Positions 9,607 through 36,612 of a DNA stretch of 36,718 nt are shown piece by piece. Positions within the stretch are counted from its first letter, which is position 1. Each line of letters begins with the position of its first letter. The DNA comes from a bacterium. Its GTDB lineage: Bacteria; SZUA-182; SZUA-191; JAJRXT01. The notes under the pieces are model-generated. The model was not told where the DNA came from and made no database searches. It was given only the letters and a program-made list of their open reading frames with translations. The DNA lies in NCBI GenBank assembly GCA_024277605.1, contig JAJRUU010000063.1, positions 1 to 36,718 of the forward strand. The letters are read 5' to 3'. The position numbers and the translations under genes are program-made.

Positions 9607-9620
9607 CAGGAGGTGTTTTT

Positions 9621-17270: not shown

Positions 17271-17286
17271 TGGCACACCGCTTGCA
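17271..17286 (+). promoter_or_regulatory. Sigma-54 (RpoN) -24/-12 promoter for the pilin gene
   Basis: TGGCAC-ACCGC-TTGCA matches the TGGCAC-N5-TTGCW consensus exactly. It lies 65 nt upstream of the pilin ATG. Confidence 0.7.
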
Positions 17287-17351
17287 ACCAAGAAAGAGCA
17301 AGGAACGAAGGAAAGTTCTTAAACTCAACCCTGGTAAAGGAGGTGAAAGAG

Positions 17352-17870
17352 ATGTTAAGGAAAATGCTAAAGAAGGACGAAGCTGGTTTTACCTTGATTG
17401 AACTTTTGATCGTGGTGGTAATCATCGGTATTTTAGCCGCTGTTGGTGTACCCATTTATTCCAGGTATATCTTTACCGCTAAAGCTTCTGAAGCGCCGAC
17501 AGTTATCGGAGCCTTAGTAGAGTACGCTGAGAGTTATGCAAGAGCTCATCCAGAGATCGTAACCGGTACTACATACACTGGATGGGGTATGTTGGGAAGC
17601 GATGCAGCCAGCACTGATGCGACTGGTTGGGTAACCGAGGTAGTTGGTGACGACAATGAATATTTCGACTACCTGTATGACGTTGATTGTAGTGCGTCGA
17701 CCGGTACTTATGCTGGCGATAGCGCACCGTGTATAATTGCACTGGGTAATGCTGGTGAATTTGCCGTGGCTGATGAACTGGTATATTTCATGGATCCTGA
17801 TAAGGATGGTAATCTTGATGAGAACTGGTGGTCAGGTAATGCGAGACTGCTGGATATAGTACCAGATTAA
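17352..17870 (+). CDS. pilA: Type IVa major pilin
   Basis: The ATG at 17352 follows an AAGGAGG SD. The prepilin leader is 'MLRKMLKKDEAG|FTLIELLIVVVIIGILAAVGVPIY' (G-1, F+1, E+5). The product is 172 aa with a Cys pair in the C-terminal part. The upstream part of track ORF 17250-17870 is not coding. Confidence 0.9.
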   Translation: MLRKMLKKDEAGFTLIELLIVVVIIGILAAVGVPIYSRYIFTAKASEAPTVIGALVEYAESYARAHPEIVTGTTYTGWGMLGSDAASTDATGWVTEVVGDDNEYFDYLYDVDCSASTGTYAGDSAPCIIALGNAGEFAVADELVYFMDPDKDGNLDENWWSGNARLLDIVPD

Positions 17871-20750: not shown

Positions 20751-20769
20751 TATCGCCTAAGGGTATAGT

Positions 20770-21583
20770 ATGCAATTTAAGATTGATTTCTTAAAACCCG
20801 GTAATGCCTTTCCAAAGAGTACGGTTTTCTTCAGGCTGGGTAAAAAATTGGGGGGGGGTTCAAACCCAGCTCAGCGACCAGTTGATCGGCCGGGTGGGGG
20901 GCAGTATAACCACGTTGGTAATCAGCTTTGCGATTTTTGTATCCGCTTGCCTTTTCTTTTATCTCGGGGTGTATCTTCCCAGGGAAAAAAGATTGGTGGA
21001 TGTGGCTACTGAAACTAAACGCATTGAAAAGCTGGTCAATTCCTTAAGACAGAAACAAAAGCAGGAGCAATCCCAATGGGATACAATTAAACTTAGAATT
21101 AATCAACTTATGAGTATGAAGAATAAAGTGGTTACCTGGACGGATAAGCTAAAAGCCATCAACCGCAATTTGGAGCCTGGGATTTGGATTGACACTCTGG
21201 AGGTGAAACAGCATGCGGTAAGGGTTGCCAAAAAGAAAGACGCAAAGGGGAAGAAGAAAAATCGACGCCGTAAAAAGGGCAAAGAAGAAGATGAGGCAAA
21301 GAACAAGAAAGATAAAAAGGCTGTTTCTCGAATAACGGTAAGTATTAAGGGGTCTACGTACGCATTCCTTGAGAATAAACCCCTTAAGTTGGTTTCGAGA
21401 TTTATGGGGAATTTGATGGATGATCCTGTATGGGAAAGAAATTTTGATCTGGCCGATTGGACGATTAATACATCTGAAGCTAACATAAGTACAGACGATA
21501 AAGAAAAAGTGGATCTGGTTGAGAATCTTAGAGATAATTTAAAAACAATAAGCTTCAGATTGGAGTTGGAGAGAAAGCGATAA
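20770..21583 (+). CDS. pilN: PilN-like pilus assembly protein, reading frame broken at a G9 tract (20850-20858)
   Basis: The ATG at 20770 (AAGGGTA SD-like) gives 'MQFKIDFLKPGNAF...', resembling the PilN N-terminal (I/V)N(L/F)LP motif. The TM helix 'ITTLVISFAIFVSACLFFYLGVYL' and coiled coil are in the +1 frame (track ORF 20804-21583). Removing one G joins the two frames. Confidence 0.7.
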
Positions 21584-21584
21584 T

Positions 21585-22610
21585 ATGAATACCCTAAAGC
21601 TGGGGTGGCTTATTTTGTTAGTATTGGCACTGGTTGCTGCCGGAGGTTCATATAACCTCTACCAAGAGCAAACTGTGAAAATGGATAAAAACCAAGCTAA
21701 CCGTGAAGAAGTAGAAAAATTGCAGGAAGAGCAGACACATAAAGTCGAATGGGAAGCCGATAAGGCAAAGGATATAGAAACCTTGAGGGAATTGGCCAAG
21801 TCTCAGGGCAAATGGTGGTTTCTGCATGATATTGAAGAGGAAATGGGAACGGAGTTTGTTCCGTATTTCCGCATTATCGGAGAGCTTAAAGTCGAGGATC
21901 AGCAGGATTACATATATATATCCAGAAATCTGGAAGTGGAAGCCAGCTATGCTGAACTTATCAGGTTGTTCGAGAATTTAGAACGGGAGCTGGGCTTCTC
22001 CATAGAAAACCTTAAAATTACTTCAGGGACGGCAAGGGGCGATAAAGATCGTCACCTAGCCACATTCGTCTTAAGCAGCCTGGAAATAAAAAAGAGATTT
22101 TTAGATGAACTCCTGAATATAAAACAAGAATCAAAACAGGTTAAATTGACAATGGCATCATTGCTCCTGACTCCGCCATGGACTGCTGATCAAACGCTGG
22201 CACTAAAAATAGATACTGTTGATCCATTCATCAAGCAAGATGCGCTTGCCATGTTCACTGTTCCGACGGGCACGAACAAGGAAACTGAAATGGGAATGCC
22301 CGCCATACTCCCGCCGATAGACTTGTCTCCGAGATTTAGATTGGAGGGTATCATAAAATTTCCCAACACTTATGTAGCCATAATTGGCCCCGACTATATT
22401 ATGCAAGAGGGGGATTGGCTGGAAAACATGCTGGTAGAAGATATAGATGCCCGACGTGTGACCTTAAAAGAAGGAGAACAAGAGTATTTTCTGGCTATAC
22501 CCGGGTTTGGTATCCAAGATAGTGGTATTACAATTGGGGGAATTCCCAAAGAAACATTGGGTGAGCAGCCGGAGTTTCCGGAATTCATGGAACAGCTTGA
22601 CGCCCACTGA
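21585..22610 (+). CDS. PilO-like protein with PilP-like C-terminal domain (apparent fusion)
   Basis: 341-aa ORF with an N-terminal TM helix, a coiled coil and a PilO-like alpha/beta region ('SYAELIRLFENLERELGFSIENLKI'). A 'VDPF' motif and the beta-rich 'LEGIIKFPNTYVAIIGPDYIMQEGDWLENMLVEDIDARRVTLKEGEQEYFL' follow, resembling PilP. Confidence 0.6.
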   Translation: MNTLKLGWLILLVLALVAAGGSYNLYQEQTVKMDKNQANREEVEKLQEEQTHKVEWEADKAKDIETLRELAKSQGKWWFLHDIEEEMGTEFVPYFRIIGELKVEDQQDYIYISRNLEVEASYAELIRLFENLERELGFSIENLKITSGTARGDKDRHLATFVLSSLEIKKRFLDELLNIKQESKQVKLTMASLLLTPPWTADQTLALKIDTVDPFIKQDALAMFTVPTGTNKETEMGMPAILPPIDLSPRFRLEGIIKFPNTYVAIIGPDYIMQEGDWLENMLVEDIDARRVTLKEGEQEYFLAIPGFGIQDSGITIGGIPKETLGEQPEFPEFMEQLDAH

Positions 22611-22700
22611 CCGGGTTAGGAAATACCTAAGGCTAATTCAGCAAAAAACAACCCAAAGTGCATTACTCGATGTGCAGAAATTAGCTGGGAGGAAAAACAG

Positions 22701-24050
22701 ATGAATAAAATGAGAGGTAACTGGAAATATTTGGCGGTATGCCTGGCGGCCTTATTGTGCTATCCAGGACAAGGTCTTGCCGTGCATGGAGCCGATTTAG
22801 CAGCACTCTTTCCCCAACAGAGGTTGTCTATGGAATTCAGAGACGCTGAAGTAAAGAACGTCTTGAGATCCTTGGCTGAGCCATACAAAATAAATCTTTT
22901 AGTCAGTAAGGGTGTCAAGGGCAGTATCAGCGCCAGTTTCGACGATGTCTATGTCAAAGATGTCTTTATCGCCGTTTTGCGTGATGCAGGGTTGGGTTAT
23001 GTTATTGAAGGCGATATCGTGAGAATAGATACCTTTGATTCATTGGGAAATAAAAGAAAGCAGGGAGCTTTAATTACCAGGAGCCTGGAAATAACCTATG
23101 CCTTCGATTCAAGCAGTAATAAAGATTTATCGAATTTGGCGAAAGAATTAAAGAAAATGTTAAGTGGAAACAGCGGATCTAATATTTCGGTTATCCCGCG
23201 TAATAATACATTGATAATTACCGATATCCCGGAATATGTGGACAAAATTGTTAGAATGGTGGGGGAGCTGGATAAGGAATCTCCCCAGATTGCTATTTTT
23301 GCCAAGATTGTGGAAATGAGCACCGATTTTAGTAAGGATTTCGGTATTCAATGGGGAGCAAAATTCGGTATTGGCGGTGATGAAGCATCCGGCAAAAGTG
23401 ACACATTCACTGCCCAGGGCGGATCAATGATGGGCACTGCACCCAACAGCGAAGGAGGAAATTTTTTAGTTGATTTGCCGGCTGCGGTGGGGCAGGGAGC
23501 TGGCGGTGCGGTGAATTTTCTGGTTGGTAAAATAGGGAGTGAAATATTGGAGGTGCAGCTTTCTGCTATGGAGGCCGAGGGTAAAGGCAGGGTGCTATCC
23601 AGCCCCAAGATCATTACCCAGGATAATCAAAAAGCCTACATAGAGAGTGGCGATGAAATTCCGTATCAAACCATACAAGAAGGGGGAGCGTTTGAGATTA
23701 GTTTTAAGGAGGCGGTGGTGAGCCTCGAGGTTACCCCGCACGTAATTGGAGATAAGGTGTTTATGGAAGTACTTATTAAAAAAGACACGGTAGACTTTAC
23801 TAAAGCGGTAGGTATCGGTCAAGAACCACCCATTAAAACCAACGAATTAAACACCAAGGTGCTGGTGAGAAACGGTGAAACAGTGGTTATCGGCGGTCTG
23901 ATTTCTCAGGATGTCTCGGGAGGAGAAGGTGGTGTACCGTTTTTACGACATATTCCAATTATAGGCAAGTTGTTTAGTTATCACAAAGAATCGAAGGCAA
24001 AAGTGGAACTTGTGATCTTTATTACCCCAAATATAATCAAAGAAGGCTAA
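22701..24050 (+). CDS. pilQ: Type IV pilus secretin
   Basis: 449-aa ORF with a signal peptide and N0/STN-like 'FRDAEVKNVLRSLAEPYKINLLVS'. Its secretin C-domain includes 'GRVLSSPKIITQDNQKAYIESGDEIPYQT' and 'GGVPFLRHIPIIGKLFS...ELVIFITPNII'. Confidence 0.9.
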   Translation: MNKMRGNWKYLAVCLAALLCYPGQGLAVHGADLAALFPQQRLSMEFRDAEVKNVLRSLAEPYKINLLVSKGVKGSISASFDDVYVKDVFIAVLRDAGLGYVIEGDIVRIDTFDSLGNKRKQGALITRSLEITYAFDSSSNKDLSNLAKELKKMLSGNSGSNISVIPRNNTLIITDIPEYVDKIVRMVGELDKESPQIAIFAKIVEMSTDFSKDFGIQWGAKFGIGGDEASGKSDTFTAQGGSMMGTAPNSEGGNFLVDLPAAVGQGAGGAVNFLVGKIGSEILEVQLSAMEAEGKGRVLSSPKIITQDNQKAYIESGDEIPYQTIQEGGAFEISFKEAVVSLEVTPHVIGDKVFMEVLIKKDTVDFTKAVGIGQEPPIKTNELNTKVLVRNGETVVIGGLISQDVSGGEGGVPFLRHIPIIGKLFSYHKESKAKVELVIFITPNIIKEG

Positions 24051-24054
24051 CTTT

Positions 24055-25884
24055 ATGTATCGGGCGTTTTTCAATTTAAGAGAAGATCCCTTTAGTTTAA
24101 ATCCAGATCCTCATTTCCTGTTTCCCAGTGAACGCCACCGGGATGCTTTCCGCTATTTGCTCTACGGTATAAAGAACCGTGAGGGTTTTATAGAAGTCAT
24201 TGGAGATGTAGGTACCGGCAAGACTCTGTTGTGTCGTGCTTTACTGGCTCTTTTAGGAACCGAGGTCAAGAGTGCCCTGATCCTGAATCCGCCGTATTCG
24301 GATGTCGAGTTTTTTGAATATGTGATGAAGGATTTGGGTATTTCCAGAGATGTGGAAAGCCGCCGGGGGGCGCTGGAAAGCTTGAATGAATTTCTCTTGC
24401 AAGAGTATAGAGAAGGCCGTAATGTAATTATCATTATTGATGAAGCGCAACATTTGAGCAGTGATTTACTGGAGCAGGTGCGCCTGTTATCCAATTTAGA
24501 GACAGAGAAGAAAAAACTACTACAAATAATTTTGGTAGGCCAGCCGGAATTAGAGGATAGATTAAGAAATCCGAATATGAGGCAGTTGGATCAGCGAATC
24601 ACCTTACGTTACTATTTAGAAAACTTAAAAAAGAATGAAATAAAGCAGTATATATATCACCGCCTGCGGATCGCCGGATCTCCCGGAGATATAAAGTTTA
24701 CCCGCGGGGCGTTAAAAAAGGTGTATAAATTTTCCAAGGGAATTCCCCGGTTAATAAACGTCGCCTGCGACAAGGCCTTACTCACTGCTTATTTCTTTAA
24801 AAGCAAGCGCATAACAGCCAAGCATGTAACTATTGCTTTAAGAAGTACCCAGCGAAGGTGGCGGAAATGCCCGCGGTTATCCAAAATCGGCTTTACCAAT
24901 GCGGCTTACACCTTTGCAATTCTGACGGTATTATTCTTCCTGATTGTGAACTGGCAGTCTTATAAGGAACTGCATGTCTGGACTAAGAAGATAAATCCGG
25001 TTCTGTCGCTTATAAAGGCCAGCGTATTGCGTCCTACTTATTTACCTCCGGCTACAGATGATGAAGTAACATCTGGAATACAAGAGCAAATTTTGCCTCT
25101 GCTTGGGGAAAAGGTAGCCATTCATAAAGCGCCGGTGGAAGCTCCTTTAGCAGTTGAGATTCCCAAACCGGTGGAAGCTCCGGTACCGCTAAAAGTGGCA
25201 GAACCAGTTAGGAAAAAACCACCAAAACCAAAAGCGCCGCCGGTCACCAAAGACTATGATTCAGTTTCTCTGGCCAATCTGTTGGCCATCTGGGGAGGAG
25301 ATAGATCGGCAGATATGGACAGTTGGGAAAGGGACGGCAGTGGTACATTAGAATATGAAAAAATAGCCAGGCAGTATGGACTGGATACAGTTTTACTTAA
25401 GGCTGATTTGCAGGAGTTGGGGATTCTAAATTTACCCTGTATATTACCCCAAATAACTGATTCCCAATCAAAACAGAAGCTTTCGTTGGTATTGGTCGGC
25501 ATATCGGAGGAGTGGGCCATGGTTATCCACCCTGAAGCCGGAGAAGTAAATTATGCAAGGGATGATTTGTCTTCCCGCTGGTCAGGGGAGGCAATTATAT
25601 TGTGGCGCAATGTTGATAATTTAATCTCCGAACCGATTTCTCCCTGGCGAAGTGAAGCTGGAATTGAGAAAATCGAGGAACGGCTGCGTCAACTGGGGTA
25701 TTTTAAAGAACAGCCGTCTACTGATATGGAAATACGCAAAAATCAACGGGCAAGGGCGCTGATGAATTTCCAGCATGACCATCGCCTTGAAGTAGACGGT
25801 ATTTTGGGAATCCGTACTCGATTAGTCCTTTATAATGTTATTGATCAACCATTTACTCCGACACTAAAGCGAGATATCTTTTAA
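24055..25884 (+). CDS. ExeA/GspA/MshM-like AAA+ ATPase with TM segment and C-terminal peptidoglycan-binding domain
   Basis: 609-aa ORF with 'FFNLREDPFSLNPDPHFLF', Walker A 'GDVGTGKT' and Walker B 'IIIIDEAQHL'. It has a central TM helix, a Pro-rich linker, and a C-terminal 'FQHDHRLEVDGILGIRT' PG_binding_1-like motif. Confidence 0.85.
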   Translation: MYRAFFNLREDPFSLNPDPHFLFPSERHRDAFRYLLYGIKNREGFIEVIGDVGTGKTLLCRALLALLGTEVKSALILNPPYSDVEFFEYVMKDLGISRDVESRRGALESLNEFLLQEYREGRNVIIIIDEAQHLSSDLLEQVRLLSNLETEKKKLLQIILVGQPELEDRLRNPNMRQLDQRITLRYYLENLKKNEIKQYIYHRLRIAGSPGDIKFTRGALKKVYKFSKGIPRLINVACDKALLTAYFFKSKRITAKHVTIALRSTQRRWRKCPRLSKIGFTNAAYTFAILTVLFFLIVNWQSYKELHVWTKKINPVLSLIKASVLRPTYLPPATDDEVTSGIQEQILPLLGEKVAIHKAPVEAPLAVEIPKPVEAPVPLKVAEPVRKKPPKPKAPPVTKDYDSVSLANLLAIWGGDRSADMDSWERDGSGTLEYEKIARQYGLDTVLLKADLQELGILNLPCILPQITDSQSKQKLSLVLVGISEEWAMVIHPEAGEVNYARDDLSSRWSGEAIILWRNVDNLISEPISPWRSEAGIEKIEERLRQLGYFKEQPSTDMEIRKNQRARALMNFQHDHRLEVDGILGIRTRLVLYNVIDQPFTPTLKRDIF

Positions 25885-25897
25885 GGGCGGATGAAAA

Positions 25898-26767
25898 ATG
25901 AGCGTTCTTTATGATCGGTTAAAAAATGTCGAGAAAGAAAAACGGCCGGAATCTCCCATAAGTGAAGAGGAAGGTTTCCCCATAGAGGGTGAAATTAAGC
26001 GCCAGAAAAGCGAACAGCAGCGAAGAAGAAAACGGGGAGGGATGGGAGGTTTGTTTTTATTCTTTGTGCTGATTTTCATTGGTGCGGTGATTATCTCGGT
26101 TAAGGATATCAACCGGAAGGAGCTGAGCGCTAAGCCATCAGTAAAAAAATTGTTGACAGCCCCCTCTGCCGAAAAAGCTAAACCTGCTTCTGCTGAAAAA
26201 ACTGAACCTACAGCCGTTGCTGAAAAAGCTACAGCTACCTCTGCTTCTGAGAAAACTAACCCCAGCGCCTCTCCAGAGGAAACTAAATCTGCATCCCCTA
26301 CAGAAAAAGCTGAGATCACTCCGGTCGAGGGAACCAAAGAAGAGGCTGTAACTACGGCTGCTATATCCAAGGCTGCGACTAAGCCGGAATCCCAACCAGG
26401 AAAGTTATTTGAAGAGGGCGCCCAATTATATAAACAACATAAGTATGAAGAGGCAGTTGCGGTTTATATGCAAGGCTTACAGGATAATCCTCAATATGCG
26501 GTGGGGTATAATAATTTGGGTGTTGTCTACTACAAACAGGATGAGTTGCGGAAGAGTTCGGCTCAGTTTAAACAAGCTGTAGAGTTTAATCCCCGGTATG
26601 CTGAAGCCCATTATAATTTAGCAGTAGTGTTGGAAAAATTGGGTCAGGAAAAGAAGGCCTTAATCCATTACCTTAAATTTTTGGAGTTTGCCCCCTTAGA
26701 ACAATATAAGTTAAAAAACAAGGAATTACAGGATAAAGTACAAGCTCATATTCGCTATTATTATTAA
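25898..26767 (+). CDS. Membrane-anchored TPR protein (MshN-like position)
   Basis: 289-aa ORF with a TM helix 'LFLFFVLIFIGAVIISV' and an (A/S/T)EK-rich low-complexity spacer. Its TPR repeats include 'YAVGYNNLGVVYYKQDELRKSSAQFKQAVEFNPRYAEAHYNLAVVLEKLGQ'. Confidence 0.75.
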   Translation: MSVLYDRLKNVEKEKRPESPISEEEGFPIEGEIKRQKSEQQRRRKRGGMGGLFLFFVLIFIGAVIISVKDINRKELSAKPSVKKLLTAPSAEKAKPASAEKTEPTAVAEKATATSASEKTNPSASPEETKSASPTEKAEITPVEGTKEEAVTTAAISKAATKPESQPGKLFEEGAQLYKQHKYEEAVAVYMQGLQDNPQYAVGYNNLGVVYYKQDELRKSSAQFKQAVEFNPRYAEAHYNLAVVLEKLGQEKKALIHYLKFLEFAPLEQYKLKNKELQDKVQAHIRYYY

Positions 26768-26781
26768 TCTCAGGAGGTAAA

Positions 26782-28542
26782 ATGGCAGTGAGACAGGCGC
26801 CCGCTCCTCCAGATACCGGTGATTCATTAGTCAGGCTACTTATAAACAAGAAACTGCTCTCTAATGTTCAGCTGGAGTTGGCCCAGGAAATCCAAAAACG
26901 ACGGGATGAAAACCTTAAAGATATCCTTGTTCGGATGGGTTGGGTTTCTGAAGAAGATATAATAAAACTGCAGGGAGAGCTGTGGAAAATACCTGTTTTT
27001 AATCCCGATCACCTAAAAAAGATAGATCCCGCCTTACTCAGCCAGATCCCCGAATATTTAAGTCGTAAGCACAATATATTACCCATTAATAAGGAGAATG
27101 GCAAGGTATGGGTGGCCATGAGCGATCCATTCGATCTGGTGGTGCTTGATGACCTGCAGCGGGTAACCAAGGCCGAAGTAAAACCGCTTATAATTTCCGA
27201 AGCAGATGTCAAGAAATATATTGATCAATGTTATAAAAAGAAAACCGGTAAAGCGGCGGAAGATAAGCAAGAAGAGCATCTAAGAGACCAGATCATAGAT
27301 GAGATGAGCGAGTTCGAACTGGATATTGACGGAGCTAACGCGGGGGAAGAAGAAGAGCAGTTAAAAGTCAGTACCAGTGATCCCCCGGTGGTAAGGCTGG
27401 TGAATTTTATGCTGGTGCAGGCCATTAATGATAAGGCATCTGATATTCATGTAGAGCCCATAGAAGATGGAATAAAGGTGCGCTATCGGGTTGATGGCTC
27501 CTTGTTTGAGCTGGTTAATTCACCCAAGAAATTTAAAGCGGCCATCATTTCCCGGATAAAGATCCTTTCCGGTATGGATATATCGGTAAAACGCGTTCCG
27601 CAGGATGGGGCGTTCACTATCCATCAGGATGGAGCGGAGGTGGATTTTCGGGTTTCGTCTCTCCCGATTATATATGGAGAAAAGATTGTGCTCCGGTTAT
27701 TGGTACGAAATGCGGTTACCGGAAACACCTTAGAGGGTTTGGATATGGGGGAGCGCAATCTGAATGTATTTAAGAAGATGATTTATCGGCCACACGGAAT
27801 GATTCTGGTTACCGGCCCTACCGGATCGGGTAAATCCACCACACTTTATACGGTATTAAATGCCATAAATGATCCTTGTAAGAATATTATTACAGTAGAA
27901 GATCCTTGCGAGTATCGGTTGGCTGGGATTCAGCAGGTGCAGGTTAAGCCGGATCTGGGTTTTGATTTTGCGGATGCGCTACGGACTATTTTACGGCAGG
28001 ATCCTGATATTGTTATGATTGGTTAAATCCGGGATAGCGTGACCGCCCATATTGCGGTCAAGGCTTCTTTAACCGGACATTTGGTGCTTTCCACGCTGCA
28101 TACCAACGATGCTCCGGGAGCTATTGTGAGGTTGGTGGATATCGGCTTAGAGCCCTTCCTGGTGGCCTCTTCGGTGACTATGGCAGTGGCCCAGCGCTTG
28201 GTGAAAAGAATTTGTAGTCATTGCAAGGAAAAATATCAAGCTTCTCTAGACGAGAAGGAGATTATAGGTTGGGACCCCAAAAAGGAACTGATCTTGCACC
28301 GAGGTAAAGGGTGTAAGGACTGTCGGAATACAGGCTATGCCGGTAGAGCGGCTGTGTTTGAGGTCTTGGAGATGTCGCCTGAGATCAAATGTTTAATGTT
28401 GGAAGGGGGATCCATGGATGCCGTCCGTGAAAAAGCTATTGAGCAGGGGATGGAAACTTTGCGGGATTGCGGCTTTCGCCGGATGCATGCGGGTATTACC
28501 ACCCTGGAATCAGTCTTGGCGGTTTGCGTCGGAGAGGATTAA
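26782..28542 (+). pseudogene. pilB: PilB/MshE-type pilus extension ATPase interrupted by one in-frame TAA (28024-28026)
   Basis: It has a GspE_N domain, then Walker A 'GPTGSGKST', then 'LRQDPDIVMIG' TAA '[29 protein letters not shown]'. A tetracysteine 'CSHC...CKDC' follows. Both track ORFs (26782-28026 and 28039-28542) are in the same frame. The stop sits where homologues have the Glu of GEIRD. Confidence 0.9.
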
Positions 28543-28550
28543 CCCTTAAT

Positions 28551-29810
28551 ATGCCTAGATATCACTATGAAGTTATAGATACAGACGGTGGTCTCCGCCG
28601 CGGGGAAATGGAAGAGGAAACCCCGGAACGTCTGGCCGATGCCTTGCAGAAGAAGGGTTTGATTGTAGTTTCTATAAACCGCTACGGAGGTGTGGAGGCT
28701 GGACAAATCAGCGGCATCAAGGCGTTTTTTGATAATTTAAACAATAAGCTTGTTCTCGGGAGTGGTAAGGTAAAACTCTCATTTGTATTGCAATTTACTA
28801 CCCAGATGGCGAGCATGGTAGGGGCTGGGTTGCATCTTTTGCGAACCTTAACCAGTTTAACGGAAGATATGACTGATAAGCGCTTTAAGATAATGTTGCA
28901 GAACATAAAAACGCAAGTAGAAGGAGGAGAGACGTTTTCCTCGGCCCTGGCTATGTATCCCAAAACATTTGGAGATATATACGTCAATCTGGTTAAGGCC
29001 GCCGAAGCTACCGGGGAAATGGATACTATCCTAAATCAATTGGCGATTTATTTGGAAAAGACGATGACTTTACGTCGGAAAGTCAAGGGAGCTTTAACAT
29101 ATCCTATATGCATATTGGTATTCGCTTTGATAGCGATTTTAGTTTTAGTGCTCAAGATTGTTCCCATATTTGAGGCAACATTTAACAAGTTGGGGGCGGA
29201 CCTGCCGCTCCCAACTCAAATTTTGATAGATGGCACTAACTTTATAAGAGATTATTTTTTCTTTGCCGGTTGTGCTTTGGCTGGCATTATCTTTGTCCTG
29301 GTTAAATTCTTTAGTACTCAAAGGGGTAGGTATATTTGGGATAAGATGATTGTGAAATTTCCTGTATTTGGGCCTTTAATTTGGAAGACGGTATTGACCC
29401 GTTTTATGCAAACCCTGTCCATTCTATTAAGCAGTGGGGTAAGTGTCTTAGAAGCGCTTAGATTAGCTGGAAAAGCTAGCGCCCACAAGGTATTGGAAAA
29501 AAGCGCTTATCAGTGTATCGATAGTATTCGGGATGGGAGTGGGATTAGTGAGGCGCTGGAGGCGACTGGGGTGTTTCCCGACATCGTGTTGCGTATGGTG
29601 AGTACCGGTGAGGAGGCTGGTACCCTGCCCGCTATGCTGGATAAGGTAACTCAGTATTTTGAACAGCAAGTTGAGACAACAGTAGACGCACTGTCTTCAT
29701 TGATTGAACCGCTCTTGATTGTATTTCTGGGAACCATTATTGGCGCTATCATCGTATCTATCTTCCTGCCCATCTTCCGCATGGGAGATGCCATAAAGGG
29801 AGTAAAATAA
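28551..29810 (+). CDS. pilC: PilC/GspF-type pilus platform protein
   Basis: The ATG at 28551 gives 'MPRYHYEVIDTDGG...', 419 aa with two T2SSF-like repeats and 3 TM helices. The longer track start at 28467 overlaps pilB and is rejected. Confidence 0.9.
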   Translation: MPRYHYEVIDTDGGLRRGEMEEETPERLADALQKKGLIVVSINRYGGVEAGQISGIKAFFDNLNNKLVLGSGKVKLSFVLQFTTQMASMVGAGLHLLRTLTSLTEDMTDKRFKIMLQNIKTQVEGGETFSSALAMYPKTFGDIYVNLVKAAEATGEMDTILNQLAIYLEKTMTLRRKVKGALTYPICILVFALIAILVLVLKIVPIFEATFNKLGADLPLPTQILIDGTNFIRDYFFFAGCALAGIIFVLVKFFSTQRGRYIWDKMIVKFPVFGPLIWKTVLTRFMQTLSILLSSGVSVLEALRLAGKASAHKVLEKSAYQCIDSIRDGSGISEALEATGVFPDIVLRMVSTGEEAGTLPAMLDKVTQYFEQQVETTVDALSSLIEPLLIVFLGTIIGAIIVSIFLPIFRMGDAIKGVK

Positions 29811-29825
29811 AGGAGTAACCAAATC

Positions 29826-31022
29826 ATGATATTAGACGAAGAGCAAGAACAAATTGCTGAACCAAAGCCAAGGGATATTGCTGGGGACAAGCGAGCAGAT
29901 AAGGGGGTGGAAAGTTTAAGCATTAGGCAATTAGTGGAGCGGATGGTGGCTGAGAGGGCATCGGATATCCACATCAATGCCGGTAGTCCGCCTATATATA
30001 GAATAGACGGAAATCTGGTGGATTTGGGTTATCCCAGGCTTACTCCCGAAAAATGTAAGCAACTGATATTTAGCGTGCTAAAAGAAAAACAAATTGCCAT
30101 GTTTGACGAGGTGAACGAGATAGATTTTTCTTTTGGTATTCCCGGCGTGGGGCGGCTTCGGGCTAATGCCTATATCCAACGTGGAACCTTTGGTCTAGCC
30201 TTAAGAAATATCCCGTATCGTATCCCGATGGTTGAAGAATTGGGATTGCCCAAGGTGGTAATCTCGCTTTGCCAGAAGCAAAGAGGATTGGTCTTGATTA
30301 CCGGCCCTACGGGTTACGGTAAGTCTACCAGCCTGGCGGCTATGCTTGGGTATATAAACAAGAAATATGCAAAACATATTATTACCGTTGAAGACCCTAT
30401 AGAATATTTACACCGCAATGAGAAATCGATGGTTACCCAGCGTGAAATAGGCGTAGACACCAAAACCTTTAATAGCGCTTTGCGCACAATTTTAAGGCAG
30501 GATCCGGATGTGGTGCTCATCGGTGAGATGCGCGATCTGTAAACTATTCAGGCTGCGCTGACTATTGCGGAGACGGGCCATTTGACCTTTGCTACATTGC
30601 ATACCAATTCAGCGGTAGAAACCATAAACCGGATTATTGACGCCTTTGACAGTGGCAGACAATCTCAGATAAGAACGCAGCTGTCATTCGTGTTGGAGGG
30701 GATAATCGCTCAGCAGTTGATCCCTCGCTGTAATACAGCCGGTCGTGTATTGTCGGCCGAAATTCTGGTGCCTAATATGGCTATCAGGAATTTGATTCGT
30801 GAAGGAAAAATCCACCAGATCTATAGTATTATGCAAACTTCTCAGGCGGCCACTATTATGCAAACCATGAACCGCTCGCTCCTGTCTTTATATAAGAACG
30901 GAGAAATAAGTTATGAGGAGTTGATGTATCGCACCACCGATCGAACGGAACTTATGGAAATGCTGAAAACCCAAAAACAAGTTGTGACATCGACCAAAAG
31001 AGCATTATTTGGCAAAAAATGA
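29826..31022 (+). pseudogene. pilT: PilT-type retraction ATPase interrupted by one in-frame TAA (30540-30542)
   Basis: 'ASDIHINAGSPPIYRIDG' is followed by Walker A 'GPTGYGKST', then '[16 protein letters not shown]' TAA '[24 protein letters not shown]', then 'AIRNLIREGK'. Both track ORFs (29826-30542 and 30582-31022) share one frame. The stop sits where homologues have the Glu of RDLET. Confidence 0.9.
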
Positions 31023-31132
31023 GACTTACGTTATAGCCTAACATGATTTATTATAAAGCGAAGCAATCTCTTTGATAAAAAAACGGGGGAATATTCGTTG
31101 TAAATCGTTACCTGAAATTGGAGATAAGTTTT

Positions 31133-32281
31133 ATGTATAAATATAGAGCTCCGAAGAAACGCCGAAGTTATTATATGCTGATTACCATGATAATTGGGTT
31201 GGCCCTCATCGGGTCTGGGGTATATGCTGAGTATGGACAATTAAGAATCAAAATAGGTGGTTTTGTTCTGGAATATTGGATTATTTCTTTGTTCCTTATG
31301 GTGCTGGGGGCCAGCTCCCTGGTGGTGTGCATAGTCAGCGGCTTATTGCTGGGAGAAACCAAAGAGAAGCTCAATGATATGCTGGGTGATAGTTTAGACA
31401 AATTCCAAAAGGTCCAAATGGATTTTCTCAAACACACTTTTTCGGTGACCGGGCAGTCATTGGCGTATAAGCTGGAGGACATTTTGGATCCCCGCTATAG
31501 AATAGTGGTTGCCGCTAATGGCCAGCGTGGTATTGAACCTAACCCTCAAACCTTTGATAAATTAGCCAGACATATTCGTACCTATACCAATGATTTTATT
31601 GCATCTCCGGTCAGAAAGGGGCAAAAGGATACAGTAATCCTAATTAATGGGATTACTTTGAAAGATTTAGTAGACCCTGGAAATCAACTTTCTAATGCGA
31701 TTACTCAAGCGATTAAGGAACTGAGTTATGAGTCACGCAAACGCAGCCTTGGTGATCGGAAGTTAATAATTAGAGCAATGATGCTTTCTCCTCAGAGCGA
31801 GACCATAAATTTCAGGAGAACCTATGGCGGGTCAGTGCCCAGCCACAAACCCATGGTGATAGATGAAGAAATAGAGACATTTTTCCAGCAGTATCCTATA
31901 AAAAATCAAACCGATGAGGCCGCTCAAGAGGTTGAGGAGCGACTTCATGGGGATATTGAGTATTCTATTCGGGCGTTTAAAAATTTGACCCATATTATAG
32001 AGACCAAGCGCTCCGCTGTTAAACTTGAGCTGAAACAGACAGTGGTGTTACCCTCAGCGTATTTTATTATCACCAATGATTTTATATTCATAGAGCAGTA
32101 CCATCTAGGGCGGGAGAATATAAACGGTAAGTATAAATGCTTGGTAGGTACAGTCCCTATGTTCCAGTTTGCCGCCGATTCGCCGGTATATGACAATATG
32201 CGCAAACACTTTGAGTTTTTGTGGACAGTGGATTTAAATAAGGAGTTAAACCAGGTTTTCAGGGTGGAACAATTAATCTGA
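31133..32281 (+). CDS. Unknown two-TM membrane protein with cytoplasmic domain, C-terminus DUF5919-like
   Basis: 382 aa from the ATG at 31133 (the TTG at 31118 is also possible). TM helices are 'YYMLITMIIGLALIGSGVY' and 'WIISLFLMVLGASSLVVCIVSGLLL'. The C-terminus 'FIITNDFIFIEQYHLGRE...VPMFQFAADSPVYDNMRKHFEFLW' resembles the DUF5919 pattern as I recall it. Confidence 0.6.
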   Translation: MYKYRAPKKRRSYYMLITMIIGLALIGSGVYAEYGQLRIKIGGFVLEYWIISLFLMVLGASSLVVCIVSGLLLGETKEKLNDMLGDSLDKFQKVQMDFLKHTFSVTGQSLAYKLEDILDPRYRIVVAANGQRGIEPNPQTFDKLARHIRTYTNDFIASPVRKGQKDTVILINGITLKDLVDPGNQLSNAITQAIKELSYESRKRSLGDRKLIIRAMMLSPQSETINFRRTYGGSVPSHKPMVIDEEIETFFQQYPIKNQTDEAAQEVEERLHGDIEYSIRAFKNLTHIIETKRSAVKLELKQTVVLPSAYFIITNDFIFIEQYHLGRENINGKYKCLVGTVPMFQFAADSPVYDNMRKHFEFLWTVDLNKELNQVFRVEQLI

Positions 32282-32380
32282 CGCAGGCTATTTGTAAATC
32301 TGGCGTTTAAAACCGATTTACAGGGTAGTATAATTCAAAAACAGGATAAGATGCGCTAACAACAAGGAGCGAGACAGTAG

Positions 32381-33577
32381 GTGATAACTGAAGAGAAGGT
32401 ATTATATCAAGCTTTATTGGAAAGTAAGTTGCTTTCTGAGGAGCAATTGCAAAAGCTTACATCTGATGTTGAGGCAAAAGGTGAAGGCATCGGGCAACAT
32501 TTGCAGCAGTTAGGCTATATGGAGGAGAAGCGCTATATTTCCTTTTTGATTAAGGAATGTGGGTATCATTTCTTGAGCCTGAATCAAGTTGAGATAGATC
32601 CGGATGCCATAAAGCAAATACCCTCAGAAGTAGCCCGACGTTTGCAAGTAATTCCCCTTCGGAAAGCCAGGGATACGCTGGCAGTGGCCATGTGCGATCC
32701 CTTCAACAAGCAAGTGTTGGCCGAGCTTGGGAAGGTGACGGCTTATACTATCTTACCGATTGTTAGCCGGCACGAGGAGATAATACAGTTTCTCAAACGT
32801 TATGATGAGTTGTGTGCCAGTAGAAGCAAGTCTCAGGTTTCTGGAATATTGAGTTATGAAGGGCTTCCCTTGGTGAGGAGATTCGTTTTTGATAGCTTTG
32901 TGGTGGGCAAGGGGAACGAATTTCCCTATGCGATGGCGTCCGCCGTAGCCAAATCACCAGGTGAAAGCTATAATCCATTGTTTTTGTACAGCGATGTTGG
33001 ATTAGGTAAAACCCATCTGCTCAATGCTATTGGTAATCAAATGAAAAATCAAAGTCCCCCAGTAAAAATGATGTATGTCACCTGCGAGTATTTTAACTCT
33101 CAGGTGGTGGGGGCCATAAAGGATAATATTATCGACCTTTTCCGTTCAACCTTTAAAACACTTGATATTTTACTTATTGATGACATTGAATTTCTAAAAG
33201 ATCGCGACAAGACACAGGAGGAGTTTTTCCATTTGTTTAACAGTATGGTTCAAGCCGGCAAACAGGTAGTAGTTACCAGCGATCGCTCTCCCAGCGAGCT
33301 TTCGGTATTGGAAAAACGCTTGCGCTCAAGATTTATGGGAGGAACCGTAGCAAATATCGATCCACCAGACCTGGAAACCAGGACGGCTATATTGCACAAA
33401 AAGAATACTGAGACGGCGGTACCAACTGAGGTGTATCATCTTTTAGCCAGCAGGATTCAAGAGAGTGTGAGGGAATTGGAGGGGGCCTTAAATACCCTGC
33501 TTTCCTTAAATAGGTTTACTGGGGAAGATATCAACATTGATAATGCTGAAAAGGTTCTACATGAGATGGGCTATTAA
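32381..33577 (+). CDS. Chimeric protein: GspE_N (T2SSE_N/MshEN-like) domain fused to a DnaA-type AAA+ domain III, no DnaA domain IV
   Basis: 398-aa ORF with a GTG start after an AAGGAG SD. Residues 1 to about 140, 'LLSEEQLQKL...GQHLQQLGYMEEKRYISFLIKECGYHFLSLNQVEIDPDAIKQIPSEVARRLQVIPLRKARDTLAVAMCDPFNKQVLAELGKVTAYTILPIV', form a T2SSE_N pattern. The rest is DnaA-like: 'FDSFVVGKGNEF', 'NPLFLYSDVGLGKTHLLNAIG', 'LLIDDIEFL', 'VVVTSDRSPSEL', 'RLRSRFMGGTVANIDPPDLETRTAILHKK' and 'VRELEGALNTLL'. The ORF ends before any DNA-binding HTH. Confidence 0.85.
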   Translation: MITEEKVLYQALLESKLLSEEQLQKLTSDVEAKGEGIGQHLQQLGYMEEKRYISFLIKECGYHFLSLNQVEIDPDAIKQIPSEVARRLQVIPLRKARDTLAVAMCDPFNKQVLAELGKVTAYTILPIVSRHEEIIQFLKRYDELCASRSKSQVSGILSYEGLPLVRRFVFDSFVVGKGNEFPYAMASAVAKSPGESYNPLFLYSDVGLGKTHLLNAIGNQMKNQSPPVKMMYVTCEYFNSQVVGAIKDNIIDLFRSTFKTLDILLIDDIEFLKDRDKTQEEFFHLFNSMVQAGKQVVVTSDRSPSELSVLEKRLRSRFMGGTVANIDPPDLETRTAILHKKNTETAVPTEVYHLLASRIQESVRELEGALNTLLSLNRFTGEDINIDNAEKVLHEMGY

Positions 33578-33733: not shown

Positions 33734-34786
33734 ATGAGATTTTCTCTCATTAGCGAAGACCTTGTAAATAAGGCCTTGCAGGTATATTTGGATAAAGGCC
33801 AATGGTCAAAAGCGGCTGACCAATATAAGAAGCTTATCAAACTCCACCCTGAAAATATTACCCTGCGGTTGAGAATGGCGGAGGTGTGTTTTAAGGGCGG
33901 GTATAAGAAAGAGGCCTTAGAACAATATCAAAAGGTAGCCGACTATTATATATCTATTGATGATTTATCAAAAGCGGTAACTATTTTGCGAACCATGTTG
34001 AATATGGATTCAACGGTTTCCAATATAAGGATTAAGTTGGCGGAGCTATATGCTAAATTGGGTGATACGGAGAATATGTGGAGTCAGTATATGACTGCCT
34101 TTAAATACTTAGAGGAGAAAAAATTACTTAATCAGTCGGTAACTGTATTAAAGGAAATGGCGAGGGTAACCACCAAAGACCCTAAGCTTATGATTCAACT
34201 GGTTGAGATGTTTATGACACGCAACTTGCGCCCACAGGCGATGGGCCAATACTTAACAATAGCCGAATTCTACTTACAGGAAAAAAATTTTGAGGAGGCC
34301 ATTAAGTATTATAAGGAAGTACTGAACTTAGATGCAGACAACCGGGAAGCCCAGATAGGGCTTGAGGTATTGGGCCAACTAAGTGGCGCTAAATCAAGCC
34401 CGGTTTCTCCAGTTAATGAAAAGCTAACCGGGGAGATAGTCTCCAGCGGACAAGGCAAAACTCCTAAACCACCGGGCCAGGAATTTCCCAGGCTGGATAT
34501 GGATGAAATATTAGCCAAGCTGTTTAGCCCCCGAATAATGACGGAAGACGACCTGCAAAGCCATTATAATTTGGGGATACTATATCAAGAGATGGCTTTG
34601 TTGGATGCGGCTATTGAGGAATTTGCCTGCGCTGCCGTCGACCCAGGTTTACAAAATAAGTGTTACCAAAGGTTAAGTATGTGTTTTGCCAAAAAGGGAA
34701 TGCTTCGCCAAGCCCAAAAATATCGACAAATGGGTGTTAATCCAAACATGTCTCAGCCTTTGCAGGAAAGCCCCTATAACTCTTGA
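33734..34786 (+). CDS. Cytoplasmic TPR-repeat protein
   Basis: 350-aa ORF with no signal peptide. It has multiple TPR-like helical pairs ('WSKAADQYKKLIKLHPEN', 'FEEAIKYYKEVLNLDADNREA', 'HYNLGILYQEMALLDAAIEEF'). Confidence 0.75.
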   Translation: MRFSLISEDLVNKALQVYLDKGQWSKAADQYKKLIKLHPENITLRLRMAEVCFKGGYKKEALEQYQKVADYYISIDDLSKAVTILRTMLNMDSTVSNIRIKLAELYAKLGDTENMWSQYMTAFKYLEEKKLLNQSVTVLKEMARVTTKDPKLMIQLVEMFMTRNLRPQAMGQYLTIAEFYLQEKNFEEAIKYYKEVLNLDADNREAQIGLEVLGQLSGAKSSPVSPVNEKLTGEIVSSGQGKTPKPPGQEFPRLDMDEILAKLFSPRIMTEDDLQSHYNLGILYQEMALLDAAIEEFACAAVDPGLQNKCYQRLSMCFAKKGMLRQAQKYRQMGVNPNMSQPLQESPYNS

Positions 34787-36612
34787 AACGGACATCGGAC
34801 AGGCTGCTCAGCCTTTTGTTATTATCTTATCTGTTTGTTTCACCACTGCTATATTCCAGCGCCGTTTATGAAGGTTTCTTACTCCCCAGAGTGTGCTTTA
34901 TTTTCCTTGTTATTGCATTAATCCTACCCCTGTTTACAATCAGGCTGATAAGGCAGGGCATAGCCTTTAGCCTGCCGGTTGATATTTATTTCCTTGGGGT
35001 ATTGTTCGCTGTCTTACTGTCATGGTTAGGGGTTAAAGACACAGCAACCTTTATTTTCAACGTGAGTTTTCTGCTGGCGGCCTATTTTACCTATTTCGTA
35101 GTAGCAAATATTATTAATACCCCTAAGCTATCAAAACTCTTCCTCGGCGCTTTATTTGTTTCGACAACCATAGTTGCCCTAATAGGCTTGATTCAATATT
35201 TGGTTTATCAGGAGGTGATTAAACATTGCCCTTATTTTCCAATTCCTTATAGACCAGCCGGATTGAGAATGTATGGGGATAGGGTTTATTCCACCTTTGG
35301 CCAGCCCAATACCATGGGGTTATATTTGTCTTTGGGGTTAATCGTCTGTCTTTATTTTTTGTTGGAGGCAAAAGCAGAAGCTACGTGGAAGAAATGGAGT
35401 ATAACCGCCGGGATGTTGCTTGCGTGCGGTTTAATCGTTTTTGTTTTGGATGCCAGTGGAGGCTTGGGGGTATATTGTGGATTGACCGCAGTGGTTGTTT
35501 ACTTCGGGCTGGGTAAAATCTACTTAGGATCCAAATGGCTGGCAGCCCGTAAGCTGAAAATTGCTTTGTTTGTGCTGGTAATAACCGGCACACTTTTTTT
35601 CTCCCAGACTGTTCTTCCAGAAACATCCTCCCTGCAACGTACTATTTCTTCCGTGCAGTATACCGCTGGAGAAGTGAATAGCTACGGTAGTATAACCAAT
35701 CGGCTTATTTATTGGCGGACGTCGTTGGAAATATTCCGGGGTTCCCCTTTGTGGGGGGTTGGGTTGGGACAGTTTGGGTTAAATTATATGCCCGCTCTGG
35801 CCGGATTAATTTTGCGAACCAATAGTGACTTTCTGAAAGACCACGCATATCCAGCAAATTATGCGCACAATGAGTTTCTTCAATTTTTAGCTGAGACAGG
35901 CCTGGTGGGGTTTCTGCTATTCGGGCTGATTTGGTTTATTGTGTGTAAGCACACCTTAAAGACCTTAAAAAGTAATCCTTCTCCGCTATTGTTAGTTACA
36001 GGTTCATTATTTATACCCTTTTTTGTTCAGTGCCTGTTATCAGCCCCCTTAAGAAGACTGTCCCTGCTTGTCATCTTGGCGTTTCTATTGGCAATCTGGG
36101 GCAGACTGATTCCTTCTAATAAGGAGCGCCATTATAAGGTATCTGCCAGGTTGGGGAAGCTGCTTATGCCCTTGGTCCTGTTACTTTCCTTAAGCATAAC
36201 GTGGGGTGTCTACGATAACTGGCGAGCCGCAGAGATCATGCGTAAGGTTATAGATTCGAACAAGACGGAGAAATTTATTCAACCTGCATTAATAGATAAG
36301 ATTGGAGTTAACCCTTACATCAAGTTCGAGCTAACTACCATGGTAGCTAAGAAAGCGCTTACCTTGGGGGTAAAGCAGAACCGCAAAGAATGGGTGGAAG
36401 TTGCCTATGAGCTGTACCAACAGGTGTTGCTGCGGCTGCCCACTCATAAATATTGCCGCTATATGGCTATTGCTTGTTTTTATTTGGGGAAAGAGCAGGA
36501 GGGCATGCAGTACATTAGGCAGGGGTTAAGTTATGTTCCCTGGGATAGTAAGTTGCGACGGATGTTAAAGCATTATCAATCTCATCTTGACCACGCACTC
36601 CCCTTTTTTTAG
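34783..36612 (+). CDS. O-antigen-ligase-like (Wzy_C) polytopic membrane protein with C-terminal TPR-like soluble domain
   Basis: 609-aa ORF whose TTG start overlaps the previous stop (TTGA). It has at least 10 TM helices and the Wzy_C signature region 'RLIYWRTSLEIFRGSPLWGVGLGQF...YAHNEFLQFLAETGLVGFLLF'. The C-terminal 150 aa or so are helical and TPR-like. Confidence 0.8.
   Translation: MKRTSDRLLSLLLLSYLFVSPLLYSSAVYEGFLLPRVCFIFLVIALILPLFTIRLIRQGIAFSLPVDIYFLGVLFAVLLSWLGVKDTATFIFNVSFLLAAYFTYFVVANIINTPKLSKLFLGALFVSTTIVALIGLIQYLVYQEVIKHCPYFPIPYRPAGLRMYGDRVYSTFGQPNTMGLYLSLGLIVCLYFLLEAKAEATWKKWSITAGMLLACGLIVFVLDASGGLGVYCGLTAVVVYFGLGKIYLGSKWLAARKLKIALFVLVITGTLFFSQTVLPETSSLQRTISSVQYTAGEVNSYGSITNRLIYWRTSLEIFRGSPLWGVGLGQFGLNYMPALAGLILRTNSDFLKDHAYPANYAHNEFLQFLAETGLVGFLLFGLIWFIVCKHTLKTLKSNPSPLLLVTGSLFIPFFVQCLLSAPLRRLSLLVILAFLLAIWGRLIPSNKERHYKVSARLGKLLMPLVLLLSLSITWGVYDNWRAAEIMRKVIDSNKTEKFIQPALIDKIGVNPYIKFELTTMVAKKALTLGVKQNRKEWVEVAYELYQQVLLRLPTHKYCRYMAIACFYLGKEQEGMQYIRQGLSYVPWDSKLRRMLKHYQSHLDHALPFF

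Follow-up and report, generated by a model that had tools for sequence, protein, structure and literature searches.

An MshEN domain joined to a DnaA-type AAA+ module in a type IV pilus locus, and the family of fusion proteins to which it belongs

The stretch of DNA analysed here (the window; 36,718 nucleotides, contig JAJRUU010000063.1 of assembly GCA_024277605.1) carries, at positions 32381–33577 on the forward strand, a gene whose product joins the MshEN domain, the N-terminal domain of type IV pilus motor ATPases, to the AAA+ module (domain III) of the replication initiator DnaA, without the DNA-binding domain IV. This MshEN–DnaA-III fusion is a real feature for which ordinary explanations fall short. 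Its parts are known, their combination is new, and it defines a sizeable, uncharacterised class of proteins associated with type IV pili. With moderate confidence, we favour the view that it is a cytoplasmic accessory ATPase, an ATP-switched and self-assembling regulator or adaptor of the motor of a type IV (MSHA-like) pilus, and not a replication initiator. The initial annotation of this DNA, made from its letters and open reading frames, knew of no characterised protein with this architecture; that statement holds within the literature we searched, where no published description of an MshEN–DnaA-III fusion was found.

Architecture and conserved residues of the fusion protein

Both halves that the initial annotation had read from the sequence were recovered by Pfam, with the MshEN domain (T2SSE_N, PF05157) at residues 61–141 (2.2e-17, 63 bits against a cutoff of 23) and the Bac_DnaA domain (PF00308) at residues 165–323 (4e-61, 206 bits), and all of the DnaA motifs quoted there are present in the translation. 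The same Pfam search gave no match in the protein to DnaA_N (PF11638) or to Bac_DnaA_C (PF08299), which is domain IV, and the T2SSE ATPase domain (PF00437) was not found in the fusion either; it is present in the neighbouring genes at 26782–28542 and 29826–31022. Among the NCBIfam models, that of PilB (TIGR02538) aligns to residues 8–150, and that of DnaA (TIGR00362) covers residues 160–395, equal to profile positions 100–337 of 437, with 301.2 bits, which is under its equivalog cutoff of 343.9 and covers domain III plus the lid only. The model of the DnaA paralogue Hda (TIGR03420) gave 91.5 bits, and its equivalog cutoff of 194.8 is not reached. The closest solved relative by sequence is domain III of Bacillus subtilis DnaA (PDB 8bv3, 3.4e-67). 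The elements of the gene are as follows.

32364–32369, forward strand: Shine–Dalgarno sequence AAGGAG, 11 nt 5' of the GTG start, read from the sequence
32381–33577, forward strand: MshEN–DnaA-III fusion gene, GTG start, 398 amino acids plus TAA stop
32393–32560, forward strand: MshEN_N-like four-helix region, residues 5–60, holding a degenerate tandem motif for cyclic di-GMP (c-di-GMP) (VLYQALLESKLL... / GIGQHLQQLGYM...)
32561–32803, forward strand: MshEN_C / T2SSE_N core, residues 61–141
32819–32860, forward strand: flexible tether joining the two modules, residues 147–160
32873–33349, forward strand: DnaA-type AAA+ core (domain IIIa), residues 165–323
32999–33019, forward strand: Walker A GLGKTHL, residues 207–213, invariant in our alignments A1 and A2
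33179–33184, forward strand: Walker B D267–D268, invariant
33317–33331, forward strand: box VII RLRSR, in which R313 equals R281 of Escherichia coli DnaA and R317, the arginine finger, equals R285
33350–33574, forward strand: AAA+ lid (domain IIIb), residues 324–398, the end of the protein, containing sensor II R364 in VRELEGAL

An AlphaFold2 model of the fusion built from 15 family sequences reached a mean confidence (pLDDT) of 84, with helices at residues 5–14, 20–33, 37–43 and 49–60 and a single disordered tether (pLDDT < 50 for residues 147–158), the length and sequence of which vary in both alignments. When the model was compared with solved structures using Foldseek, it matched B. subtilis DnaA domain III (8bv3) with a TM score of 0.90 and a root-mean-square deviation of 2.1 Å, the MshEN–c-di-GMP structure 5htl with 0.72, 9g1w with 0.68, and the Xanthomonas PilB(N)–PilZ complex 7lkm with 0.65.

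The initial annotation had proposed that the open reading frame stops before domain IV, and had named a frameshift concealing that domain as a way in which this could fail. No such frameshift was found. The TAA of the fusion gene is followed by five more in-frame stops inside the 156 nt that precede the next gene, which encodes a tetratricopeptide repeat (TPR) protein, and therefore no domain IV is hidden there. A domain IV concealed by frameshift or read-through is ruled out by these stops, by the 156-nt gap and by the orthologues, which end at the same residue. Since domain IV is lacking, the fusion cannot bind DnaA boxes, as had been stated. A scan for promoters and terminators near the gene gave matches no more numerous than in shuffled sequence. 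A link to anti-phage defence was also ruled out, PADLOC giving just a generic AAA match of 22 bits.

The state of the AAA+ module was assessed by a residue census of 111 modules, 14 from the clade of close orthologues of the fusion (the target clade) and 97 from the broad family described below. The Walker A Lys, the Walker B Asp-Asp, D301, R313, R317 and sensor II R364 are present in 14 of 14 members of the target clade and are kept in 89–97 of the 97 broad-family modules, with K210 of Walker A in all 97 and the arginine finger R317 in 96. From the conserved Walker, arginine-finger and sensor II residues, the members of the fusion family are predicted to hydrolyse ATP and to form oligomers by means of the arginine finger.

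The positions by which DnaA contacts DNA are kept less evenly. In B. subtilis DnaA, the residues for single-stranded DNA (ssDNA) contact and nucleobase capture are E183, N187, I190, I193, R202, K222 and E228 (PMC10721633). Six of the seven are retained in the target clade (E236, V243, I246, R255, R275 and E281, each in 12–14 of the 14 members), and N187 alone is lost. In the broad family the three positions of helix alpha-3 of the initiator-specific motif (ISM) have diverged, E183 being replaced by Ser in 58 of 97 modules and N187 and I190 being degenerate. Among the residues retained, R202 and E228 may have a structural role. A basic residue (K or R) stands at AID-1 in 11 of the 14 members of the target clade and Cys in 56 of the 97 broad-family modules, and the AID-2 Leu is replaced by Thr in the target clade. 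The Trp of box VII (E. coli W288), present in 140 of 150 true DnaAs, is Gly in the fusion (G320, 33338–33340), and in a comparison of 350 modules this column is G, S or A in every class of DnaA-III protein without domain IV. It could serve as a simple signature separating non-initiator paralogues from real DnaA.

A large family in type IV pilus gene clusters

A first word-indexed search recovered about 15 proteins with the fusion architecture at 40–85% identity. The orthologues align over their whole length, and the 75 invariant columns of that alignment point to strong purifying selection; in 14 of them, from independent assemblies (NCBI, JGI, ENA and Logan), the start, the junction and the stop coincide. 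The fusion is conserved within the lineage like the histidinol dehydrogenase HisD (identity falling from 85 to 70% for the fusion and from 81 to 67% for HisD). A second word-indexed search with a diverse alignment as query gave few added members and no names. An exhaustive HMMER profile search was run against 1.84 billion representatives, and the top 150 clusters (50% identity) were classified with purpose-built hidden Markov models (HMMs) as follows.

78 clusters: MshEN plus DnaA-III, without domain IV
23 clusters: tandem DnaA-III
41 clusters: other partner plus DnaA-III, without domain IV (about 25 of them TPRxN fusions of about 1,360 amino acids)
8 clusters: true DnaA

The HMM for domain IV was negative in all 78 clusters of the fusion and positive in 10 of 10 control DnaAs, and Pfam calls agree for representative members of the classified architectures. 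The protein is no isolated case: the family has at least 78 clusters, and the target clade is one branch of it, of compact form. Most other members have a linker of 200–700 amino acids between the two modules and end about 5 residues past the lid (the tail being mostly 1–7 residues and in a few members longer). In a neighbour-joining tree of the AAA+ modules (no bootstrap), the target clade is monophyletic and nested among the other MshEN fusions, which fits a single origin of the MshEN–DnaA-III fusions. The most distant member with a short linker (P0018, 589 amino acids) is extended at its C-terminus by a coiled coil, and its c-di-GMP motifs are near-canonical. Its gene lies in the region 403–2172 of a 4-kb contig (L088) and is preceded there (3–353) by another that encodes a protein with a DnaA-III module at its end. 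Two very long members (P0241, 1,990 amino acids; P0242, 1,876 amino acids) have a full MshEN plus DnaA-III at the start and a second DnaA-III near the C-terminus, with about 1,200 residues between the DnaA-III modules that have no Pfam assignment.

The names given to these proteins in the sources are limited to 'ATP-binding protein', in metagenome-assembled genomes (MAGs) of WOR-3 and Hydrogenedentota, or, at JGI, to 'chromosomal replication initiator protein DnaA'. The JGI/IMG label sits on P0005–P0007, P0009, P0249, P0258, P0265 and P0270, all without domain IV, and such systematic misannotation could inflate the counts of dnaA in metagenomes.

The genomic contexts place the family at type IV pili. 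In all eight informative contexts (the window and contigs L001, L002, L003, L005, L089, L090 and L091), the fusion gene lies beside the PilB/MshE and PilT motor genes, in gene orders that differ. The close relatives L001, L002, L003 and L005 have the order of the window with intact MshE (587–594 amino acids) and PilT. L089 reads GGDEF-PilT-fusion-PilB-PilB-PilC-PilS-PilR-pilins, L091, with the long-linker form, reads REC/HD-GYP-fusion-PilB-PilT-PilS-PilR, so that GGDEF and HD-GYP genes flank the fusion in these two, and L090, of WOR-3 type, reads PilB-PilT-PilC-pilin-PilD-unknown-standalone MshEN-TPR-fusion-PilMN-PilO-PilP-secretin. A gene for a TPR protein adjoins the fusion in seven of 10 contexts, after it in L001–L005 and before it in L090. 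No replication gene was seen in any of the 10 fusion contexts, and comEA, comEC, dprA and ssb were not found next to family members in the contexts examined. The search for the same architecture and for its co-occurrence with pilus genes, which the initial annotation had suggested, thus gave at least 78 clusters and a pilus gene cluster in every informative context. Because these eight contexts span a deep divergence, the functional connection with the pilus machine is far better supported than it could be from the sequence alone. At positions 7005–7895 of L090, the standalone 143-aa MshEN and 138-aa TPR proteins are encoded directly 5' of the fusion, as if the modules also occurred separately.

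In the window, the fusion gene is the twelfth of a co-directional pilus operon, of which the genes are the following.

17250–17870, forward strand: pilin gene
19188–20750, forward strand: PilM/MshI-like gene
20804–21583 and 21585–22610, forward strand: two unassigned genes
22701–24050, forward strand: secretin
24055–25884, forward strand: ATPase with AAA_22 and PG_binding domains, MshM/ExeA-like
25898–26767, forward strand: TPR protein, MshN-like
26782–28542, forward strand: MshE/PilB-type extension ATPase (MshEN plus T2SSE), interrupted by TAA at 28024–28026
28467–29810 (open reading frame as listed), forward strand: PilC/MshG platform protein (T2SSF, 1.6e-55)
29826–31022, forward strand: PilT-type retraction ATPase, interrupted by TAA at 30540–30542
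31118–32281, forward strand: 387-aa protein of unknown family, encoded between PilT and the fusion; its N-terminal region is hydrophobic, which suggests membrane helices
33734–34786, forward strand: TPR protein of 350 amino acids, the proposed partner of the fusion, whose best family match is the N-terminal TPR block of SgmX
34783–36612, forward strand: Wzy_C / O-antigen-ligase-like membrane protein, with a weak match to the pilin O-oligosaccharyltransferase TfpM

The domain order over 19188–29810 (PilM-like, two small genes, secretin, AAA_22 plus PG-binding, TPR, MshE, PilC-like) fits an MSHA-type locus, and the first part of the operon matches the order mshIJKLMNEG, which we take to be the Vibrio reference order. 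The MSHA equivalog cutoffs are not reached by the genes of the locus (for example, TIGR03015 with 285 bits against 324.5). The true start of PilC/MshG is probably 3' of the MshE stop, and its relatives have 418 amino acids. The 387-aa protein had no match in Pfam, NCBIfam or PADLOC, and its single-sequence AlphaFold2 model (pLDDT 42) was unusable; it is kept in L001–L003 at 53–85% identity and is absent from the more distant L005. The 350-aa TPR protein matches the SgmX model NF052243 with 5.4e-24 and 84.5 bits, the next TPR family following at 5e-11. The cutoff of that model is 1800 bits, and the match, of residues 13–127 to residues 62–176 of the 1,065-aa SgmX only, is a resemblance and not a membership.

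The neighbourhood given by the initial annotation, with pilB-pilC-pilT, a membrane protein, a TPR protein and a Wzy_C protein, was confirmed, with the correction that MshE and PilT each carry one in-frame TAA. Both stops are G>T changes (GAA>TAA) at a Glu codon conserved (GAA/GAG) in four relatives, the one in MshE replacing the Glu of DPDIVMIGEIRD and the one in PilT replacing the Glu of GEMRDLETI. They are absent from all relatives and are the sole stops inside genes across the window. Errors of sequencing or consensus calling, variation within the population (for instance through phage escape) or a recent pseudogenisation could explain them. Reassignment of the stop codon was rejected, since TAA ends other genes including the fusion, the window has no tRNA gene and the relatives have GAA/GAG at both positions.

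Elsewhere in the window there are housekeeping genes, namely hisD, a gene of the EPSP-synthase family (murA or aroA) and a comM-like gene, and the DNA is therefore chromosomal. An Rfam scan of the window gave no match. Other genes mentioned here are the following.

887–2917, reverse strand: 676-aa protein with TolB_N, two PEGA, a CarboxypepD_reg-like and a C-terminal FGE-sulfatase (formylglycine-generating enzyme-like) domain, an unusual envelope-associated architecture
4496–5815, reverse strand: HisD
7158–8684, strand opposite to the fusion and 24 kb away from it: ComM/YifB-type gene
9295–10620, forward strand: three consecutive small genes for a DUF4258 protein, an MqsA-type antitoxin and a SecB-like chaperone, resembling a tripartite toxin-antitoxin-chaperone (TAC) module

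HisD has five relatives at 67–81% identity, and the next matches, at 54% or less, are scattered over Nitrospinota, Binatia, Magnetococcales and Gammaproteobacteria. This steep drop after five close relatives indicates a host from a deep lineage of which very little has been sampled. Of 185,579 species representatives, one genome matched, the MAG 'bacterium Dive96_bin10.214'.

The other DnaA-III families without domain IV, the TPR-DnaA-III and tandem-DnaA-III families, contrast with the fusions in lying near mreBCD, divIVA and mraZ, and the tandem genes are not in pilus loci. Proteins of the tandem family (585–674 amino acids; L086 10001–13539, L087 10001–13596, P0015, P0017, P0020, P0023, P0028 and P0071) have two DnaA domain III modules with a helical linker between them. 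In contigs of Gemmatimonadota type, the tandem gene stands directly before a gene for a PatA_N plus TPR protein, with divIVA, ileS and mraZ nearby. A cryptic MshEN between the tandem modules was considered and rejected, as BLAST gives two AAA+ matches only and the linker is helical. Homology of the window's TPR protein to the PatA_N-TPR partner of the tandem family was likewise not borne out, since BLAST shows similarity at the level of the repeats only. The giant proteins (about 1,360 amino acids and up to 2,150; P0298, encoded at L092 2876–6961, together with P0299, P0300, P0310, P0316 and about 20 more clusters) have a zinc ribbon of the DnaG-type CHC2 kind, many TPRs and a C-terminal DnaA-III. 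In the sole context examined (L092), the gene lies next to mreB-mreC-rodA and mraZ-rsmH-ftsL.

Proposed role and alternative explanations

In the mechanism that we propose, the MshEN domain would dock the fusion at the base of the pilus, either on the PilM/MshI–PilC platform, the usual receiver of the N-domain of the motor, or on the motor itself. A flexible tether links it to the complete DnaA-type AAA+ module, which would bind and hydrolyse ATP and self-assemble through its arginine finger, and so act as a nucleotide-state switch or a scaffold. The fusion probably works with the adjacent SgmX-like TPR protein, and the two together would decide if, and at which site, the ATPases for extension and retraction become engaged with the pilus machine. 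For the majority of the family, MshEN is probably a sensor of c-di-GMP as well, an input apparently lost in the target clade.

Besides the conserved pilus context and the intact AAA+ module, it counts in favour of an accessory ATPase of the pilus motor that other proteins are known to dock on N-domains of the MshEN type, an example being the PilB(N)–PilZ complex 7lkm. The pairing of the fusion with a TPR protein is supported by the single-chain TPRxN-DnaA-III proteins (a Rosetta-stone link), and SgmX is needed for the polar localisation of PilB in Myxococcus xanthus (PMC7519303). Several points weigh against this role. We infer the protein-protein contacts of the fusion. The match of the TPR protein to SgmX is far under the cutoff and its TPR similarity is generic, and BLAST of the two TPR partners gives similarity at the repeat level alone. 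The six ssDNA-contact residues kept in the target clade are not obviously needed by a pure motor regulator. With nonsense codons in both motors, the pilus system may be non-functional in this host. Two of the ten contexts (L004, which starts at the fusion gene, and the 4-kb contig L088) are too short to show pilus genes. Furthermore, to our knowledge, DnaA-type AAA+ modules are otherwise known from DNA replication only (DnaA, Hda).

The first alternative is a coupling of the pilus to replication, in which the DnaA-III module would co-assemble with the DnaA-ATP oligomer, cap it or stimulate hydrolysis on it, in an Hda-like or dominant-negative manner, and MshEN would tie it to the pilus base or, in other clades, to c-di-GMP, so that the initiation of replication would respond to surface contact or to the state of the pilus. 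We give this speculative link a limited chance. With true DnaA-III the AAA+ module shares about 47% identity, and it scores far better with the DnaA model than with that of Hda (301 against 91 bits); R317, R313 and sensor II are invariant, and a basic AID-1 residue is kept in most of the target clade. In Caulobacter, replication initiation is triggered by pilus-dependent surface sensing. Hda sets the precedent of a domain-III-only DnaA paralogue able to regulate DnaA (PMC7049699 and PMC5397184). However, the fusion has no Hda-like N-terminal clamp-binding motif, its N-terminus being MshEN; the box VII Trp, the AID-2 Leu and, in much of the broad family, the AID-1 residue are replaced; replication genes are missing from all 10 contexts; and the broad family has diverged at the ISM positions. 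A wider form of the idea, to which we assign a low probability, is that the DnaA-III module still acts on DnaA substrates, as hetero-oligomers with real DnaA or as ssDNA filaments, and thereby couples pilus activity to the initiation of replication or to the handling of incoming DNA. If a coupling of pilus and chromosome were true, the fusions, together with the TPR- and tandem-DnaA-III proteins near mreB, divIVA and dcw, would form a hidden class of DnaA-derived ATPases linking the envelope to the chromosome cycle in uncultured phyla.

It is improbable, in our judgement, that the fusion handles ssDNA at a DNA-uptake pilus, where an ATP-dependent DnaA-III filament on ssDNA, tethered by MshEN to a retractile pilus, would receive or protect transforming DNA. 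The retained contact residues of the target clade, the PilT retraction ATPase of the locus and the ComM/YifB-type gene of the window would agree with it. Against it, the ISM helix alpha-3 contacts are lost in the broad family and Asn187 is lost in the target clade too, the retention of R202 and E228 may be structural, the competence genes looked for are missing beside family members, and the ComM-type gene lies far off on the other strand.

A receptor that binds c-di-GMP through MshEN and signals to the pilus machine, the gating suggested in the initial annotation, is quite unlikely for this protein. The MshEN fold is present, the wider family is mostly near-canonical in its motif, and GGDEF or HD-GYP genes are sometimes neighbours. 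Scored over the 22 defined positions of the relaxed motif of Wang et al. 2016, however, the fusion has 15 (14–17 in the target clade), short of the motif, so that its description as degenerate was correct. In motif 1, positions 1, 3 and 10 read V..Y..K, without the [RKPN] and Gly positions (G>Y), and motif 2 has G in place of Arg at position 1 (R>G); Wang et al. tied R38G, along with other changes, to the lost c-di-GMP binding of XpsE (PMC5013675). The model NF053729 gives 20.5 bits against a cutoff of 38. The MshE ATPases of the lineage itself are equally degenerate (14–15 of 22), in contrast to the control, domain 1 of Thermus thermophilus PilF (19 of 22), whose MshEN/GSPII domains have solved complexes with c-di-GMP. 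In the broad family, 51 of 95 members score at least 20, and sensing of c-di-GMP is probably typical of that family and lost in the lineage of the fusion; such gating is plausible for most other members.

That the gene is a truncated or decaying dnaA, or an artefact of assembly or gene calling joining unrelated genes, as the JGI label of its relatives and the two nonsense-interrupted genes of the window might suggest, can practically be set aside in view of the 14 independent orthologues with 75 invariant columns, the at least 78 divergent clusters, and the domain IV HMM, negative in the fusion and positive in the control DnaAs.

Significance and comparison with known systems

The DnaA AAA+ module, hitherto regarded as dedicated to replication (DnaA, Hda), is reused here at scale as a C-terminal engine. 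The resulting proteins form a class of type IV pilus components that had not been recognised before, in candidate phyla such as WOR-3 and Hydrogenedentota. For c-di-GMP research the family offers a new output domain of MshEN; the partners of MshEN recorded by Wang et al. are REC, HD-GYP, CheA, CheX, cyclase, kinase, glycosyltransferase and AAA_31, and DnaA is not among them (PMC5013675). In addition, the family exposes a systematic annotation error, since public metagenome annotations give these fusions the name 'chromosomal replication initiator protein DnaA', and it provides a concrete, testable way of asking if surface organelles of bacteria are connected to their cycle of replication.

With DnaA domain III the fusion shares the same AAA+ fold with the initiator-specific motif, at 46% identity to the B. 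subtilis module, and in the target clade also Walker A and B, sensors I and II, the box VII arginine finger and most of the ssDNA contacts. It differs from DnaA in having no domain I (binding of DnaB/DiaA, dimerisation), domain II or domain IV (binding of DnaA boxes), and by the box VII Gly, the sub-cutoff TIGR00362 score and the location in a pilus operon. Hda/HdaA is likewise a DnaA paralogue cut to an AAA+ module with an arginine finger, but it has diverged much further (about 20% identity) and is encoded in surroundings that have nothing to do with pili. The clamp-binding motif of Hda is of the QL[SP]LPL type. Hda has this motif for the beta clamp at the N-terminus, where the fusion reads MITEEKVLYQALLESKLL..., that is, MshEN.

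With PilB, MshE and GspE the fusion shares a homologous N-domain, 25% identical to that of the MshE of its own locus, which is encoded in the same operon; those motors continue into a RecA-like hexameric T2SSE, whereas the fusion has a DnaA-type AAA+ module and a degenerate c-di-GMP motif. SgmX/MglA and FimX/PilZ are cytoplasmic accessory factors that govern the recruitment or activation of the extension ATPase, the former involving a TPR protein and the latter docking on an MshEN-type N-domain. Neither includes an AAA+ ATPase, and the likeness of the fusion to them is a functional analogy plus a sub-threshold TPR match, and the fusion protein is not itself homologous to them. MshM/ExeA (GspA), one of which is encoded in the locus itself, is also an accessory P-loop/AAA-type ATPase of loci for MSHA and type II secretion, but it consists of AAA_22 with a peptidoglycan-binding domain, serves secretin assembly, is unrelated to DnaA and has no MshEN.

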